Origin: Candidatus Eremiobacteria bacterium
GTDB taxonomy: Bacteria > Vulcanimicrobiota > Vulcanimicrobiia > Vulcanimicrobiales > Vulcanimicrobiaceae
Assembly (NCBI GenBank): GCA_963737065.1
Contig: CAVTRC010000002.1
Span: 96,001-160,000, forward strand
DNA length: 64,000 nt
Reading direction: 5' to 3'
A program made the translations under genes and the position numbers. Shown here in pieces: positions 5,651 through 16,329 of this stretch. The stretch's first letter is position 1; each line of letters begins with the position of its first letter. The notes below the pieces were generated by a model. The model did not search any database. It saw only the letters and a program-made list of their open reading frames with translations, and was not told where the DNA came from.

Positions 5651-6792
5651 TCACCGTGAATGCCGAGTTGGGTGTCTACGTGCACCTTCCGTTTTGTCCG
5701 TATATTTGTCCGTACTGTGACTTTGCGAAGTGGCCGATGCGCCGAAGCATCGCATCGCAGTATCTCGAAGCGCTGTACAGCGAAATCGAGGAGCAGCCGA
5801 TCGAAGCGGCAGCGACGCTCTTTCTCGGCGGCGGCACGCCGAACGCGTATCGTGCCGATGAGATCGCGGCATTGCTTGCACGCCTTCGTGCGATCTACGA
5901 CGTCCAAAGCAGCGTGTCGGAAACGACGATCGAAGTGAATCCGGAGCTCATTGCACCCGGCGATTTCGAGCACTACGCCGCAGCCGGAGTCTCGCGCCTG
6001 TCGATCGGCGTCCAATCGTTCGACGCTGCGGAGATCGAGACGCTCGGAAGAAAGCATACGTCCGGACAGATTCGTGCAGCCGTCGAAGGCGCGCGTTCTG
6101 CGGCTATTGCGTCGGTTTCACTCGATCTCATCTTCGCCGTTCCCGGCCAAACGGTCACATCGTGGGATCGCTCGTTGCGCGCGGCGATCGACCTCGGCGT
6201 CGATCACGTCTCGACATACGGACTCACGATTGAGGAAGGGACGCCCTACGAACGGTGGTACGAGCGCCAGCCATCCGCATTTTTCGATGATGCACGCGAA
6301 GCGGATCTCTACGACCGCGCGATCGATGTGCTCGAGCGCGCCGGATACGAACACTACGAGATCAGCAGCTTTGCGAAACCCGGGCATCGCAGTGCGCACA
6401 ACGGCAACTATTGGCGTAACGGCGAATACGCCGGGCTCGGCGTCGGCGCCGCGTCATATCGCAACGGCGAACGATGGGTAAACACGCGCGATCTCAAGGT
6501 CTATCTCGATGCGGCGCTGGCGCGAACGCCGATTCCCGCGCAAAGCGAGCGTCTTCCGGCACATAAAGCGTGCGGAGAAGGACTGATGCTTGCTCTGCGA
6601 ACGGCGCAAGGGGTGGGACTGTGCGAGTTCAAGAAGCGGTACGGCGTTGACGTCGAGGAGCATTACGCTCCGGTAATCGCCCGCTATGGCGACGCGGGAT
6701 TGCTGGAAATCGAAGAAGGCCGAATGCGGTTGACGCGACGCGGAAAATTTCTTGCTAACGACGTGTGCGGAGCCTTTGTAACATTCGAGTAG
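5647..6792 (+). CDS. hemW: Radical SAM heme chaperone HemW (HemN-like)
   Basis: YVHLPFCPYICPYCDF (CxxxCxxC), GGGTP, RLSIGVQSF, YEISSF, HNGNYW. Confidence 0.92.
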   Translation: MITVNAELGVYVHLPFCPYICPYCDFAKWPMRRSIASQYLEALYSEIEEQPIEAAATLFLGGGTPNAYRADEIAALLARLRAIYDVQSSVSETTIEVNPELIAPGDFEHYAAAGVSRLSIGVQSFDAAEIETLGRKHTSGQIRAAVEGARSAAIASVSLDLIFAVPGQTVTSWDRSLRAAIDLGVDHVSTYGLTIEEGTPYERWYERQPSAFFDDAREADLYDRAIDVLERAGYEHYEISSFAKPGHRSAHNGNYWRNGEYAGLGVGAASYRNGERWVNTRDLKVYLDAALARTPIPAQSERLPAHKACGEGLMLALRTAQGVGLCEFKKRYGVDVEEHYAPVIARYGDAGLLEIEEGRMRLTRRGKFLANDVCGAFVTFE

Positions 6793-6827
6793 CGGGCAAC
6801 AACCTTTCCGGCGCGATTTTGCGAACG

Positions 6828-7889
6828 ATGTTTATCGTCGTGTTCGCAGTGACGGGCTTTTTGCTCGGCCGCGAAGCGTACTTAGGCATCCTCTCGCTTC
6901 ACGTCGCGAATGAAGCGCTTCAGATCGCGCTCTCGATTGGTTCGTCGGTGGCCGGTGCGCTTGTCGGCGTGCTGGTGGCGCCATTCGCGCAGAGCTTCTT
7001 CGAAGACGAGCTCATCGTCGCCGAAGGCGCAATCGAACGCCTGTCCCCAGCCGAAGTCGCCGGGGGCGCGATCGGCCTCATCGCGGGGCTCGGCATTTCA
7101 CTGCTCGTGAAGAACATTGCATTCGAGTTCGTAAACTTCGCAGGACGCTCGGGCCATTATCTTGCGATCGTGTTGTACTTGATCGTTGCGGCTTTTTGCG
7201 CCTATCTCGGCGCGCGTGTCGGCGCGAAAATCGGAATGCGGCCGCTCGGCGATCGCGCCGATACGGCGCCCGCTAAAATCGTAGATACGTCCGTGATCAT
7301 CGATGGCCGCATCCTGGAGATCGTCGAGAGCGGATTTTTGGAAGGGACCCTCGTCGTACCGCGTTTCGTGTTGCGCGAACTGCAGACGATTGCCGATTCC
7401 GTCGATCCGCTCAAGCGCACGCGCGGGCGGCGCGGTCTCGAAGTGTTGAGCCGTTTGCAAGAACTGCGCGCGTTAGACATCAGCGAGCGCGATTACAGCG
7501 ATCTGCCGCCCGGAAACGTCGACGCGAAGCTCGTTCGCCTCGCACGCGAGACGAGCGGTAAATTATTGACCAACGATTACAATCTCAATCGTGTCGCAAG
7601 CGTCGAGCGGGTCGACGTGTTGAATATCAACGAACTTTCGAATGCGGTGAAGCCGGTCGTTCTTCCGGGCGAAGAGATGAACGTTCACGTGATTCGCGAG
7701 GGAAAAGAACCGAATCAAGGCGTTGCATATCTCGACGACGGGACGATGATCGTCGTCGAACAAGGGCGCCGACTCATCGGCGAAGAGACCGACGTCGTCG
7801 TCACGAGCGTGTTGCAAACCGTCGCCGGCCGCATGATTTTTGCGCGACCAAAGCCAGGGCCCGTCCACTCAGCGCCGCATGGTACGTAG
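6828..7889 (+). CDS. Membrane-anchored PIN/TRAM domain protein (YacL family); start approximate
   Basis: N-terminal TM helices, KIVDTSVIIDGRI, RGRRGL, TNDYNLN, GKEPNQGVAYLDDGTMIVVE, VTSVLQT; usual position upstream of ispD. Confidence 0.92.
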   Translation: MFIVVFAVTGFLLGREAYLGILSLHVANEALQIALSIGSSVAGALVGVLVAPFAQSFFEDELIVAEGAIERLSPAEVAGGAIGLIAGLGISLLVKNIAFEFVNFAGRSGHYLAIVLYLIVAAFCAYLGARVGAKIGMRPLGDRADTAPAKIVDTSVIIDGRILEIVESGFLEGTLVVPRFVLRELQTIADSVDPLKRTRGRRGLEVLSRLQELRALDISERDYSDLPPGNVDAKLVRLARETSGKLLTNDYNLNRVASVERVDVLNINELSNAVKPVVLPGEEMNVHVIREGKEPNQGVAYLDDGTMIVVEQGRRLIGEETDVVVTSVLQTVAGRMIFARPKPGPVHSAPHGT

Positions 7890-8032
7890 ATGGATTCCTT
7901 GCTCGCCTGCACCGCGCTGCTCACCGGGCACGCATCTGAGGCTTCGCGCACTCTTCCCGCCTTGCGAGGGCGAGGAATGAACGGAATCCGGTGCCATGCA
8001 ACGACCGGCGAACGCCCACATCGGACGGTTCG

Positions 8033-8986
8033 ATGAATTGGGGAGCGATTGTCGTCGCCGCTGGACGCGGTACTCGCTTCGGTGGCCCGAAGCAGTTCGT
8101 CGAGATCGGCGGGCTGCCGATGATCGGCTGGTCGATCCGAACGTTCGCCGCGATGCCCGAGATCGGCGAACTGGTCCTCGTCACCGAGGACGAATGGCTT
8201 GAGCCGATGCGCTCGCTCGCATCGCAACTCGCGCCGGCGCATACACCGGCGATGGTTGAAGGCGGTCCGTCGCGTCACGCGAGCGTACGCAACGGTTTGC
8301 ATGCGTTGTCCGATCGTTGCGGCGGAGTGCTCGTGCATGATGGTGCGCGTCCGCTGGTTCGTGCCGAAGACGTCCGCAAGGGGATGCGCGAAGTACGTGC
8401 CGGGCGTGCAGCGGTGCTCGCCGCGCCGGTCGTCGACACGATCAAGATTGTCGATCCGGCGACAATGCTCGTTCGAAAGACGCTCGATCGCGGTGAGCTG
8501 TGGGCGGCGCAAACGCCCCAATTCTCTATGCGACGTGAGCTTCAGCGCGCGCACATCGAGGCGCAGCGTGCCGGGACCGAAGCGACGGACGACGTGACGC
8601 TGCTCGAAGCAATCGGCATTGAGGTAATGGCCGTTGCGTCGTCGGCCGAGAATTTCAAAGTGACGCATCCGCCGGACGTTGCGCGTGCCGAGACGCTCTT
8701 GCGCGAGCGGCTCGACCACGCGCCCGAAGAAGACGAGGTGTTACTCATCGAAGTCTTTGCAGACGACGCGCTCGTCGAGGCGATCGAGCGTGAGTTGGAA
8801 TCGCGCGGCGCAACGATCGACGCTATCGATCGCGACCTCCCGCGCGGTGCGATCGTCCGCGCCTACGTGTCGTCGAACGCCTTGCGCGGATTCGGTTCGC
8901 GATTCGAAGCGTTTGGCGACGGTACGGCGACGTTCACGACGCGCTTTTCGCATTACGGGGGCCGCGGCGAAGGAGTCCGTGCGTGA
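8033..8986 (+). CDS. ispD: 2-C-methyl-D-erythritol 4-phosphate cytidylyltransferase with an extra ~80-aa C-terminal domain
   Basis: AAGRGTRFGGPKQF, VHDGARP, AQTPQ, TDD, NFKVTHPPD; ORF continues about 90 codons past the normal IspD end. Confidence 0.93.
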   Translation: MNWGAIVVAAGRGTRFGGPKQFVEIGGLPMIGWSIRTFAAMPEIGELVLVTEDEWLEPMRSLASQLAPAHTPAMVEGGPSRHASVRNGLHALSDRCGGVLVHDGARPLVRAEDVRKGMREVRAGRAAVLAAPVVDTIKIVDPATMLVRKTLDRGELWAAQTPQFSMRRELQRAHIEAQRAGTEATDDVTLLEAIGIEVMAVASSAENFKVTHPPDVARAETLLRERLDHAPEEDEVLLIEVFADDALVEAIERELESRGATIDAIDRDLPRGAIVRAYVSSNALRGFGSRFEAFGDGTATFTTRFSHYGGRGEGVRA

Positions 8987-9468
8987 CGAGGGTCGGACAC
9001 GGTTTTGACGCGCACCGCTTCAGCCCCCGACGGCGCCTCGTGCTCGGCGGAGTTGAAGTTCCCCACGATAGCGGACTGCTTGGCCATTCGGATGCCGACG
9101 TCGTCGCCCATGCGGTCTCCGACGCACTTCTCGGCGCTGCCGCTCTCGGCGATCTCGGCGGCCATTTTCCCGACACCGACCCGAAATGGAAGGACGCCGA
9201 CTCGATGGTGCTGCTCGAGGCGTGCATGCAATCCGTCCGCGATGCCGGATACGCCGTTTCGAACGTCGATGCGACGATCGTCGTCGATCGTCCGAAGCTC
9301 GCGCCCTATATCGGAGCGATGCGCGAAAACCTCGCGACGCGTCTCCAATTGCCGCTCGAACGCATTAGCATCAAAGCGAAGACGAGCGAAGGAATGGGGT
9401 ATACGGGAGACGGCACCGGGGTCGCGGCGTATGCGGTCGCCGCTATAGAGAAGAGGGAGCGCGCCTAA
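8983..9468 (+). CDS. ispF: 2-C-methyl-D-erythritol 2,4-cyclodiphosphate synthase
   Basis: RVGHGFDAHRF, LGHSDADV, GDLGGHFPD, IKAKTSEGMG. Confidence 0.96.
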   Translation: MTRVGHGFDAHRFSPRRRLVLGGVEVPHDSGLLGHSDADVVAHAVSDALLGAAALGDLGGHFPDTDPKWKDADSMVLLEACMQSVRDAGYAVSNVDATIVVDRPKLAPYIGAMRENLATRLQLPLERISIKAKTSEGMGYTGDGTGVAAYAVAAIEKRERA

Positions 9469-10019
9469 TGGACGTTTCTCGGGCGCAGTTGATGACGGCG
9501 ATGCAGCGATGGCGTTTTCTCGGAGATTCGCCACCGGATGCAGCGATTCGCTGGATCGACTCGTTCTTAGAGGCGTACGGTGAACGGCTGGCCGGCGTCG
9601 ACGACGCCTATCCGTTCGTCGCTGCGCTGCGAGCGGAGGCGTGTGTGATCCCGGCCCTCGAACTGGAACGGCTCCGTACGCGCAACGTACTGTTCTTTCT
9701 CGATTCCGTAGGCCAGTATATCGACGATCAGCCGGAACTGCGCGCTTTGCCGCTTTCTCAAGACATTCCGGCGATTGCGGCAGAATTCGGCATATCGAAA
9801 GAGGACGCGTTTTATGCCGTACGCATGGCGCTTACGGGAGCCAAAGATGGACCGCCGCTCGAACTGCTTTTTCCGCTGCTGGGCCACGACCGCATGCTCA
9901 TGCGTATCGGGGCGGTGAATTCGCGCTTGCTGCACGGACGTGGCCTCGAACCGATCAAATATGGCCCGGATGGGAAGCCGTTCGAACCGATTCGCTCGAA
10001 GGCGCCCGATGACGTCTGA
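9468..10019 (+). CDS. Stand-alone protein resembling the C-terminal helical anticodon-binding domain of glutamyl-tRNA synthetase
   Basis: VRMALTGAKDGPPLELLFPLLGHDRMLMRI matches the GluRS C-terminal pattern; no HIGH or KMSKS motif; occupies the gltX position. Confidence 0.75.
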   Translation: MDVSRAQLMTAMQRWRFLGDSPPDAAIRWIDSFLEAYGERLAGVDDAYPFVAALRAEACVIPALELERLRTRNVLFFLDSVGQYIDDQPELRALPLSQDIPAIAAEFGISKEDAFYAVRMALTGAKDGPPLELLFPLLGHDRMLMRIGAVNSRLLHGRGLEPIKYGPDGKPFEPIRSKAPDDV

Positions 10020-14134: not shown

Positions 14135-14172
14135 AAGAAGAAGCCGCATCGAGACGACGATGCGGCTTTCTT
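14135..14172. terminator. Probable bidirectional intrinsic terminator between sigH and the SRPBCC gene
   Basis: AAGCCGCATCG-agacga-CGATGCGGCTT with A-rich and T-rich flanks. Confidence 0.75.
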
Positions 14173-14174
14173 GC

Positions 14175-14615
14175 TTAGAGCCTTGTTACATAGGCGTCGA
14201 GCCAACCCAGCACAACCGTCCAGCCCGCTTCGTGGTCATCGTACATCTCTTGATTGGGGAAGCCGGAATGCGTCAGACGAACGCGCGTCTTCCCGTTGGT
14301 CTCCGTGAGATCGAACCGGACGACGGTTTCGGTCGGTTCCCCGAACCGATTGTGAATCCAGGTGAATTCCAGCACGTTCGGCGGTTCGATCAGCCGGTAC
14401 ACGCCGTGGACGCAATGATCCTCCGGAATACTGCTGACCATTTGCCATCTTCCGCCGACGTGAACGTCCGCCTCAAAAGACTCGAGCCGGTGCATATCGT
14501 TGTTCCACCACTCGGAAAGTTCGGACGGGTCTGTGAGCGCTGCGAAAACCTTTGCAGCGGGCGCATCGATGTCGATCTCTTTGACGATCGCGGGAAGGAC
14601 TTGAGTCGTACTCAT
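14175..14615 (-). CDS. SRPBCC/AHSA1 domain protein
   Basis: IDAPAAKVFAALTDPSELSEWW, DVHVGG, LEFTW, TRVRLTH, GW. Confidence 0.9.
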   Translation of the reverse strand: MSTTQVLPAIVKEIDIDAPAAKVFAALTDPSELSEWWNNDMHRLESFEADVHVGGRWQMVSSIPEDHCVHGVYRLIEPPNVLEFTWIHNRFGEPTETVVRFDLTETNGKTRVRLTHSGFPNQEMYDDHEAGWTVVLGWLDAYVTRL

Positions 14616-14926
14616 CGTTTATTCTCCACGTGGGCTTTGAGACGCGCAAGACTGCGATCCCAGAAGTGCTTGTAGTCGTCGAGCCAGGCGTCCACGCATT
14701 TGAGCGGTTCCGGATTGAGTTCGCACATGCGCGCGGCTCCCTGCGGCGTGTCTTTTACGAGCTTCGCTTCACGCAAGATGCGTAAGTGTTTAGAGATTGC
14801 AGGACGGCTCGTGTGAAAATTCGCGGCCAAATCGCCGACGGTACAGGCGCCGTTTCGCAAGATGCCGAGGATCTCGCGGCGGGTCGGATCGGCGAGGGCC
14901 TTGAAGACAAGATGTGAGGTAACCAT
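14612..14926 (-). CDS. ArsR/SmtB family transcriptional regulator (start 14926 or 14938)
   Basis: VFKALADPTRREIL, SRPAISKHLRILREAKLV; typical ArsR-SRPBCC pair. Confidence 0.92.
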   Translation of the reverse strand: MVTSHLVFKALADPTRREILGILRNGACTVGDLAANFHTSRPAISKHLRILREAKLVKDTPQGAARMCELNPEPLKCVDAWLDDYKHFWDRSLARLKAHVENKR

Positions 14927-14967
14927 TCGGTTACGCATATGGTAGCCGAATGGTTACGAATCGTCAA
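14919..14967 (-). promoter_or_regulatory. Promoter with two palindromic operator boxes for the ArsR gene
   Basis: GTAACC-N4-GGTTAC at 14919-14934 and GTAGCC-N4-GGTTAC at 14942-14957; minus-strand TTGACG-N17-TACCAT. Confidence 0.75.
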
Positions 14968-15113
14968 CCGGCTTGACCGGCAATTCTGTCTGTTTGCATA
15001 AGCGACGGACCGTCGTCTCGTCGTCGGTCGGGCAAGCTACGTTCGCGCTGCGCGTACAGACGCGCCAGGCCGACGCAGAACTCTCCGCACACGGGCGGAA
15101 CCCGCTTCAGGTC

Positions 15114-15488
15114 TTACTTTCGTTGATGGAGTCCGAAGTAATTTCCGTCAGGGTCTTGGCACCACTCGGAAAAACACGGGTCGCCCGTCCCGAACCGCTT
15201 GACGTAGGTTCCACCAAGTTCCACGACGCGTTTGCGCAGTGTTTCCGCATCCTCCACGCCGAACACGACCCCGCCCGTAGGAGTGAATTCTGTTGCTTCC
15301 GGGTCGCGTCCAATTGCAAGCGTATTCCCGTCGGGCAAATCGTACTCCACGTAAAAATCCTGGTACTCCACCGACGCTTTGAGGTTGAGAAGCGCCTCGT
15401 AGAACGTGCGCAATTTGTGCATATCGCGCGTTTGAACGATGACGAAATCGAAACCGCGCGTCAACGGTTCAGTGCTGGTTGTACTCAT
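15114..15488 (-). CDS. VOC/glyoxalase family protein
   Basis: FYEALLNL, VVFGVED, VVELGG, QDPDGNYFGLH. Confidence 0.85.
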   Translation of the reverse strand: MSTTSTEPLTRGFDFVIVQTRDMHKLRTFYEALLNLKASVEYQDFYVEYDLPDGNTLAIGRDPEATEFTPTGGVVFGVEDAETLRKRVVELGGTYVKRFGTGDPCFSEWCQDPDGNYFGLHQRK

Positions 15489-15524
15489 ACCGTTATACTA
15501 ACCGACCAATCCTGACATTTACCG

Positions 15525-15869
15525 TCAGGATTGTCCCTTGCCTCCCATTCGCTCGACGATGACGTCGTAGACCGCCCGTTTTTCATCGAGCGGATCGACG
15601 ACCATTACCTGCGCACGATCGCCGTTCTTCGGATCGAGGCAGACGGTCACTTTGCCTTTCGCGCACACGTCCATGCAACTCGTCGAAATCACGCGAACCG
15701 GTCCCCATTCGCCATGCTCTTTTAGCGCTGCTTTGAGCCAGTTGCGTAGATTAAAATCGCCGATGCGTTCGGCGATGTCCGGATCTTCTTCAGGGATACG
15801 TTCTTTGAAACACCGCTCGCACACGAGCACGAGGCCGCTGCTGAGCCATTTCGGTTTGACGGGCTGCAT
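15525..15869 (-). CDS. Thioredoxin-like (2Fe-2S) ferredoxin domain protein
   Basis: VLVCERC ... TSCMDVC four-cysteine pattern. Confidence 0.65.
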   Translation of the reverse strand: MQPVKPKWLSSGLVLVCERCFKERIPEEDPDIAERIGDFNLRNWLKAALKEHGEWGPVRVISTSCMDVCAKGKVTVCLDPKNGDRAQVMVVDPLDEKRAVYDVIVERMGGKGQS

Positions 15870-15946
15870 GGGGCGCTCACACTTGCGGACTCGTTTCGCA
15901 TTCCCCTTTATCACCGCGCACGAACGGCGCATCGTAATGAAAGCGG

Positions 15947-16029
15947 AGCCGACGGCCGGATTCGAACCGGCGTGCTCTTTCGAGGCGCAATTACAAATCG
16001 CGTGCTTTCAACCGCTCAGCCACGTCGGC
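15947..16029 (-). tRNA. tRNA-Thr(TGT) with a long variable arm
   Basis: Acceptor GCCGACG/CGTCGGC, discriminator T, anticodon arm CGCGA-TTTGTAA-TTGCG, 14-nt variable region, T arm GCCGG-TTCGAAT-CCGGC; CCA not encoded. Confidence 0.88.
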
Positions 16030-16329
16030 GTATGTACCCGTCTTGTGTCGGGACGTTCGGTTCAACGAGGTCGTCGAGGGTCCTTGGAACCGGCGACCGC
16101 GCTACGGCGCGCTGCGGCTTTTCGTCGGACATTCACCTTGTATGGGATTGTGTTTCCCGCCGAGCCGGTTGCCTCGACCTTGCCCTTGATTCAGCGCTCG
16201 GTATGTCGGAGTGAGCGAGTGGCGCAATCGCCATCGACGTGTTCCACTTCGAGGGGAATTCGCGCCGTCTTCGGGTGACGTTCACACCACCCGCAGCGAC
16301 GCAACGATGGGTTCTGCTACGGCTCACAT

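Follow-up and report, generated by a model that had tools for sequence, protein, structure and literature searches.

A C-terminal domain related to EF-G domain V fused to IspD in one family of uncultured Candidatus Eremiobacteria

The stretch of DNA analysed here, referred to as the window, comprises 64,000 nucleotides of the genome of a Candidatus Eremiobacteria bacterium (contig CAVTRC010000002.1, positions 96,001 to 160,000), and its forward strand carries at 8033..8986 an ispD gene that continues, past the end of the enzyme, into a segment encoding a domain related to domain V of the elongation factor EF-G (Pfam family EFG_C). This gene, ispD-EFG_C, encodes a protein of 317 residues from the ATG at 8033 and ends in a TGA stop codon at 8984-8986. 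The open reading frame (ORF) would also allow a GTG start at 7991 (ORF 7991..8986, forward strand, 331 residues); the ATG at 8033 is the start found in homologues and in the database form P0002 (317 residues), and the N-termini of 35 homologues align at the motif MxWGA. Read along the forward strand, the gene consists of the catalytic domain of IspD (2-C-methyl-D-erythritol 4-phosphate cytidylyltransferase; 8045..8704), delimited by Pfam, NCBIfam and AlphaFold2 (AF2); an acidic linker of about 11 residues (ERLDHAPEEDE; 8705..8737), recognized from a dip in the AF2 predicted local distance difference test (pLDDT) score and from the C-termini of relatives that lack the extension; the EF-G domain V-like domain of 73 residues, hereafter the tail, which ends in FSHY (8738..8956) and is supported by Pfam EFG_C, a profile search of the PDB, AF2 and fold searches; and a variable C-terminal end, GGRGEGVRA (8957..8983), which is predicted to be disordered (AF2 pLDDT < 50) and is not conserved. 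The ispF gene, encoding 2-C-methyl-D-erythritol 2,4-cyclodiphosphate (MEcPP) synthase, follows on the same strand as a separate ORF (8983..9468; YgbB, PF02542, E 1.7e-65), and its GTG start shares four nucleotides (GTGA) with the ispD stop codon. The peptides quoted in the first-pass annotation, NFKVTHPPDV and LLIEVFADD...TRFSHY, are present exactly in ORF 7991..8986 on the forward strand; the coordinates that it gave for the additional domain, 8730..8960, bracket the domain as placed here, with a start displaced by one base from the reading frame, in which the codon begins at 8729.

The IspD part of the gene is complete as far as can be judged from sequence, as residues 1-224 (317-residue numbering) form a full-length IspD that scores above all curated cut-offs. 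Pfam IspD (PF01128) matches residues 19-238 of the 331-residue form with E 1.7e-56 and 191.9 bits (cut-off 27), covering profile positions 3-220 of 221, and NCBIfam TIGR00453 (ispD) gives 203.4 bits against a cut-off of 181.3 over profile positions 2-219 of 219. The nucleotide-binding and catalytic motifs of IspD are a glycine-rich AAGxGxR loop, the lysine of a PKQ motif and an HDxARP motif, and the translation contains the corresponding stretches VVAAGRGTRFGGPKQF and VLVHDGARPLV, which vary little or not at all among 36 homologues. The catalytic domain is predicted by AF2 with pLDDT values mostly above 85. With its AAGxGxR, PKQ and VHDGARP motifs and its position directly upstream of ispF, the gene thus resembles ordinary IspD/YgbP (PF01128, TIGR00453); unlike ordinary IspD, which ends at 224-246 residues, as it does in all 40 tail-less relatives from the same family, it encodes about 93 further residues that include a second folded domain. 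The protein contains neither a G domain nor domains II-IV, since Pfam detects only IspD and NTP_transf_3 before the tail; it is therefore not a translational GTPase, and its last domain alone is related to these factors.

The resemblance of the tail to EF-G domain V, which the first-pass annotation had proposed from a sequence pattern, is judged to be real on four independent kinds of sequence-based and model-based evidence, namely Pfam searches with single tails, a profile search against solved structures, the predicted fold and fold searches. In the whole protein, EFG_C (PF00679) matches residues 252-322 of the 331-residue form (profile positions 8-78 of 89, E 2e-6) with 28.1 bits, barely above the Pfam gathering cut-off of 27.9, and the tail of the window on its own also exceeds the cut-off, with 32.2 bits (E 1.1e-7; 30.8 bits in a scan of the genome). 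The same family is matched by each of 21 isolated tails from different genomes at E ≤ 0.01 (best E 1.1e-11), and no other Pfam family, ACT- and PII-type families included, is matched by any of these 21 tails at that threshold; weak EF-G models also cover the tail in an NCBIfam scan. A search of PDB sequences with a single tail was merely suggestive (best EF-G match, E 0.12) and a profile search was needed: the 21-tail profile gave 45 matches at E ≤ 1 (best E 3.2e-6), and all 45 are domain V of EF-G, EF-G2, mitochondrial EF-G2 or EF2, while LepA, BipA and Tet(M) are absent among the matches at E ≤ 1.

The predicted structure points in the same direction. The AF2 model of the tail alone (pLDDT 85.6; predicted template modelling score (pTM) 0.74) displays a double-split β-α-β fold with the order β-α-β-β-α-β, and when this model was used as the query of a Foldseek search against the PDB, the best 50 matches were all domain V of EF-G, EF2, Snu114 or BipA, with 9ghc_W at the top (E 6.3e-6, template modelling score 0.77). 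A VIA-align comparison of the predicted model with 48,161 representative chains likewise returned domain V of translational GTPases for all of the best 10 matches (Z 9.5-11.9), and generic ferredoxin-like folds, such as PII-like proteins, the YigZ C-terminal domain, HisG_C and CutA, ranked lower (Z ≤ 9.2). In a feature search of the ESM Atlas, every cluster obtained was EFG_C, with scores (0.87-0.88) of the lead level. The first-pass view of the tail as a recruited ferredoxin-like module is right, and Pfam, the PDB profile search, Foldseek and VIA-align all prefer EFG_C over generic ACT- or PII-like folds. Long-form HisG, ACT- and PII-like enzymes and YigZ/IMPACT, with its EF-G-domain-like C-terminus, are comparable in that the same fold class is appended to an enzyme or an enzyme-like core, and some of them are weaker structural matches of the tail (YigZ 1vi7, Z 8.8; HisG 4yb5, Z 7.9; PII-like 5d4l, Z 9.0). 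They differ from the tail in that no sequence relation to it was found in Pfam with the 21 tails, the best matches being EF-G domain V itself.

The tail shares with EF-G domain V its sequence ancestry, its fold and a gapless alignment to the EF-G of its own genome, yet it stands outside a GTPase and has diverged considerably. Five copies of EFG_C are present in the genome: four lie in frames of about 500-710 residues, lengths as in translational GTPases, and the fifth is the IspD tail. A hidden Markov model built from 42 tails matches only one of these four other loci (L011; 31.6 bits over 77 residues, gapless), which has the strongest EFG_C score in the genome (108 bits) in a frame of about 700 residues, is presumably fusA, and lies about 260 kb from ispD-EFG_C on the same contig. 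The identity between the tail of the window and domain V of this EF-G is 18/77 (~23%). Motifs of the domain core are common to both, namely the RG turn, the G-F pair in helix 2 and the FSHY end, and the helix located after domain V in EF-G is missing from the tail. In an alignment of 21 tails, whose identities fall as low as 35%, eight columns are invariant: strand 1 contributes a glutamate and strand 2 an aspartate, an RDLP hairpin between strands 2 and 3 contributes its arginine, leucine and proline (its aspartate is at least 90% conserved), strand 3 an arginine-alanine pair and strand 4 a threonine. The most conserved residues of the tail, the RDLP hairpin and the strand 3 arginine among them, are residues foreign to EF-G. 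The 42 tails carry net charges of -8 to -1 (median -4, isoelectric point (pI) 4.8), compared with -1 and pI 6.1 for domain V of the genome's own EF-G.

The tail is confined to one family of the phylum in the sample examined. Among 401 genomes of the phylum, with the tail scored as present at E ≤ 1e-10, it was found in 89, comprising 88 of 296 genomes of one family (f1) and the window's own genome, which also belongs to f1; at this threshold it was found in none of the 104 genomes from the 20 other families sampled. Eight of the 89 positive genomes are marked as unpublished (G212, G237, G370, G263, G247, G245, G359 and G177), and leaving them out gives 81 of 393; the genome counts, together with the tallies of tail-less loci and of the anticodon-domain ORF described below, include unpublished genomes, and the sequences analysed come from published ones only. 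The tail occurs in 28 of 116 genera and is unevenly spread among them, being present in 31 of 33 genomes of genus g2, 9 of 11 of g24 and 4 of 5 of g1 and in none of g4 (0/80), g21 (0/18) and g19 (0/12). At looser thresholds, the EF-G of each genome itself is matched by the tail query as well, with roughly 30% identity.

A search of 5.8 billion clusters with the tail region returned 37 proteins, mostly of 303-326 residues and otherwise shorter partial forms, 32 of which already bear both PF01128 and PF00679 in precomputed annotation; the few named ones are labelled Candidatus Eremiobacteraeota or Baltobacteraceae. Database sources label the tail-bearing family Baltobacteraceae/Eremiobacterota, an uncultured soil lineage known from metagenomes. 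An exhaustive HMMER search of 1.84 billion representative proteins gave only 17 matches at E ≤ 1e-3, of which 11 are forms or fragments of IspD, one is a fragment of EF-G and five are giant proteins. These five (P0048-P0051 and P0054; 2093-2730 residues, E 9e-9 to 1.8e-4, three to seven matching stretches each) are probably artefacts of repeats or composition, and the three that were scanned (P0048, P0049 and P0051) are tape-measure proteins (Pfam TMP_3). The EFG_C-specific matches and the presence of the tail in close orthologues mean that neither outcome named in the first-pass annotation as speaking against its proposal, a match to generic ACT or ferredoxin folds alone or the absence of the tail from close orthologues, was observed.

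The organization of the gene is constant in the relatives that carry the tail. Core and tail form one ORF of 306-323 residues in all 20 tail-bearing loci inspected, each from a different genome, whereas ispD encodes 224-246 residues in all 40 tail-less loci of the same family, and the C-termini of these shorter proteins fall within or just past the linker (for example, ...LLRERLEHA). In all 60 loci, ispD has its own stop codon and is followed by ispF as a separate gene, with a four-nucleotide overlap as the commonest spacing; no IspDF fusion and no triple fusion occurs among them. Frames of about 680 and about 400 residues had suggested larger fusions (PIN-TRAM-IspD and IspD-IspF), and these proved to be open stretches in other frames or upstream read-through. 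The tail is comparable to, and distinct from, the second half of bifunctional IspDF enzymes such as that of Campylobacter jejuni (NF006899): it is a C-terminal extension at the same junction of IspD with the same pathway neighbour, but it is not IspF, and the protein scores 143.9 against the NF006899 cut-off of 417, in a partial match over the IspD part only.

Some relatives carry altered forms of the tail. In shortened proteins of 303-308 residues (P0033 and P0034-P0037; locus L027), the RDLP hairpin is kept, the final strand and the FSHY end being absent or replaced; these may be intermediates of decay or a variant form. In G248 (L079, G248:C3:496100-498100), the tail is not in the same frame as the IspD core, and in G369 (L080, G369:C5:8600-10400) several frame breaks affect both core and tail. 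Each of these is a single case from a draft genome in which sequencing errors, a split gene and decay are indistinguishable, and a stand-alone tail gene was rejected as a reading of them.

The phylogenetic pattern suggests how the fusion arose. A FastTree phylogeny of the IspD core was built from 126 database proteins, 41 with and 85 without the tail, after three partial rows and rows shorter than 215 residues had been dropped and with one truncated form counted as tail-less. The tails are all found within one part of this tree, where tail-less rows are nested among the tail-bearing ones; at least six changes of tail state are required, two of which are forced by well-supported branches. A second tree, of the IspD core together with IspF from 60 genomes (21 with and 39 without the tail, one partial locus dropped), requires six changes, three of them forced by starred branches, and places the tail-less L036 inside a six-row clade with the window that has 95% support. 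All tails are homologous to each other, with a common junction and a gapless alignment within the domain, and the history of the tail is therefore inferred to consist of a single gain and, after it, several losses or replacements of alleles. An ancestor within the family would have acquired a 3' piece of an EF-G gene, in frame with the end of ispD and in a single event; the captured tail would then have diverged rapidly, to the ~23% identity with the genome's own EF-G domain V, before becoming fixed, and would later have been lost or replaced in several lineages. Among the 120 nearest relatives, the identity of the core is 61-70% for tail-less and 63-88% for tail-bearing proteins. The amino-acid identity of the tail follows that of the core in close relatives and drops somewhat faster at depth. 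The ratio of nonsynonymous to synonymous substitution rates (dN/dS) is 0.03-0.26 for the tail and 0.06-0.32 for the core in the eight of nine pairs with an estimable dS, indicating that the tail and the catalytic core are under purifying selection of about equal strength, as estimated from these comparisons.

Taken together, the explanation that we favour, with a probability of roughly 0.6, is that the tail, a true homologue of EF-G domain V, was captured once and now serves IspD as an accessory binding module. The domain would no longer be part of a translocase. More tentatively, and at somewhat less than even odds for the mechanism as a whole, it would act as a flexibly tethered, non-catalytic binding or regulatory module, present twice per IspD dimer, whose working surface would consist of the hairpin between strands 2 and 3, with its new polar residues that are invariant, and of the open sheet face, and whose target would be a partner or effector outside the IspD-IspF pair, so that the location or activity of IspD would be tuned with its chemistry unchanged. 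The predicted models fit a tethered domain: pLDDT falls to 76 and 70 in the two blocks covering the linker (residues 221-240, 317-residue numbering), compared with 85-96 before and 92 after it, and the full-length model (pLDDT 86.2) has a pTM of 0.70, approximately the value expected from the large domain alone. The search for co-varying positions is also in keeping with a target outside the pair. No column of the IspD core is conserved to at least 85% in the 41 tail-bearing proteins and to at most 30% in both tail-less groups (28 nested and 56 others), and no IspF column separates the 21 tail-bearing from the 40 tail-less genomes, the largest frequency difference being 0.38; IspF lengths are equal in both. 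This speaks weakly against a dedicated interface of the tail with the core or with IspF. The mild acidity of the tails likewise speaks weakly against binding to ribosomal RNA (rRNA). When two copies of the tail (residues 232-312) were co-predicted without controls, ipSAE was 0.00 and 0.00 with a mark of 0.42, which speaks neither for nor against self-association. The 183-residue anticodon-domain protein encoded downstream was considered as a partner of the tail and set aside, as the two distributions differ (18/18 against 0/18 for the tail in g21, and 0/11 against 9/11 in g24).

Several points weigh against this explanation. As regards history, the trees were built on short alignments, and part of the patchiness of the tail may stem from exchange of ispD alleles instead of loss. 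G244, a member of the same genus as the window, lacks the tail at E ≤ 1e-10, and a tail-less IspD of 233 residues (P0057), probably from G244, sits in another, tail-less clade, a case that hints at allele exchange within the family over simple loss. The dS values are near saturation in several of the pairs compared. As regards mechanism, the lack of co-variation is weak evidence, since the tail could dock on surfaces that are conserved anyway, and a tail that is merely mildly acidic (median -4 versus -1 in the genome's own EF-G domain V) is compatible with rRNA binding. The AF2 models are predictions that were judged by their pLDDT and pTM scores, and the tail may yet dock on the core. No partner or ligand emerged from any of the analyses, and the mechanism is what we infer from the features described above. 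The functional ideas of the first-pass annotation, namely allostery, scaffolding of IspF and a link to RNA or ribosome binding, received no support from these analyses and figure among the less probable alternatives that follow.

An alternative that we consider unlikely, while giving it real weight, is that the tail is an intramolecular allosteric or ligand-sensing domain, which, on binding a metabolite such as a nucleotide or a downstream isoprenoid diphosphate, would modulate the active site or oligomeric state of IspD. Its fold class is used by ACT, PII-like and HisG_C regulators, whose structural matches to the tail (Z 7-9) lie under those of the EF-G family and are not negligible; the invariant charged residues (E, D, R and R) cluster on the hairpin and strands, and the strong selection on the tail would also be expected of such a domain. 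However, none of the 21 tails matches an ACT- or PII-type family in Pfam, no column of the IspD core co-varies with the tail, and the linker is predicted to be flexible. Moreover, EF-G domain V is not known as a binder of small molecules.

A more doubtful alternative is that the tail has kept the ribosome-binding function of its ancestor, placing IspD on ribosomes or allowing it to sense translation and so linking flux through the MEP (2-C-methyl-D-erythritol 4-phosphate) pathway to protein synthesis. In EF-G, domain V contacts the ribosome at the GTPase-associated centre or in the region of the sarcin-ricin loop, and it works as part of a five-domain factor. True homology to domain V, retention of the fold and of several core motifs (the RG turn, G-F in helix 2 and the FSHY end) and the position of the gene in a translation-rich cluster (cysS, an rlmB-like methylase and a paralogue of the anticodon-binding domain of glutamyl-tRNA synthetase (GluRS)) are all consistent with this possibility. 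Against it stand the mere 18/77 identity to the genome's own domain V, the novelty of those residues that the tails conserve best (RDLP hairpin, strand 3 arginine), the acidic character of the 42 tails (net charge -8 to -1, median -4, pI 4.8), the dispensability of the tail in nested relatives and the role of domain V in EF-G as one part of a larger factor. That the domesticated domain still recognizes the docking site of EF-G, whether the GTPase-associated centre, the sarcin-ricin loop or a protein that binds the C-terminal domains of EF-G, is quite improbable; if true, IspD would be held on, or be responsive to, the translation machinery, giving a direct physical link between isoprenoid precursors and protein synthesis for a gene located inside a translation-gene cluster.

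Slightly less probable still is the idea, already raised in the first-pass annotation, that the tail serves as a scaffold for IspF (or for IspE and IspF), docking the IspD dimer on the IspF trimer as a non-covalent equivalent of bifunctional IspDF. The tail does occupy the exact place of IspF in IspDF enzymes, and ispF follows with an overlapping stop and start in all 20 tail-bearing loci. The same ispD-ispF overlap is present in the 40 tail-less family loci, however, and neither the columns nor the length of IspF distinguish the 21 tail-bearing from the 40 tail-less genomes, so the idea found no support. A functionless relic or an artefact, whether a read-through that is in frame by chance, a chimera made in assembly or an insertion in decay, is already disfavoured and very improbable, because the shortened tails of 303-308 residues without the FSHY end, the frame breaks in two genomes and the repeated loss of the tail are outweighed by the same fusion in 89 genomes and 28 genera from many independent metagenome sources, a dN/dS as low as that of the catalytic core, eight invariant columns across tails down to 35% identity and a confident predicted fold.

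An accessory module derived from EF-G domain V would be of interest for several reasons. Atkinson 2015 (PMC4342817) presents EFG_C as an innovation of the translational GTPases of the EF2 family, and the domain, treated there as private to these factors, would here have passed to a metabolic enzyme, in which strong selection maintains it across 28 genera or more. The fusion would thus be a clean natural case of a ribosome-factor domain re-used outside translation, for which the tail-less orthologues, about as close in the core, provide natural controls. It may also represent an unrecognized layer of control or localization in the MEP pathway, which is a drug and engineering target. The lineage is known from metagenomes, and the function of the tail stands at the level of a proposal. 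A literature search at the level of listings and abstracts found no description of the IspD-EFG_C architecture, for which an automatic entry in the InterPro/Pfam architecture tables is possible; the enzyme and the domain are each known, their combination being undescribed. In public annotation, these proteins go by the name IspD alone, which at present hides the architecture.

The surroundings of the gene were assigned by Pfam and run in the order fakA-like, plsX, degV, a HemN-like radical S-adenosylmethionine gene, PIN-TRAM, ispD-EFG_C, ispF, an anticodon-domain ORF, cysE, cysS, a SpoU-type rRNA methylase and a sigma factor, which we take to resemble the Bacillus-type yacL-ispD-ispF-gltX-cysE-cysS-rlmB-sigH cluster. 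Directly upstream of ispD, a YacL-like protein of 374 residues with PIN and TRAM domains (Pfam) and a hydrophobic N-terminal third is encoded at 6765..7889 on the forward strand, presumably in the same position as in Firmicutes-type clusters. Downstream, an ORF of 183 residues (9468..10019, forward strand) encodes a GluRS-type anticodon-binding domain alone (Pfam Anticodon_2, E 2.5e-8). This ORF begins right at the stop of ispF, in the place that gltX takes in the Bacillus-type cluster. A complete GluRS is encoded elsewhere in the genome (G000:C1:1840443-1841855), and the 183-residue protein occurs in 199 of the 401 phylum genomes (194 of 296 in f1 and 4 of 5 in f2). After the sigma-factor gene, three consecutive ORFs of 171, 180 and 208 residues (14160..16278, forward strand) have no Pfam match at E ≤ 1e-5.

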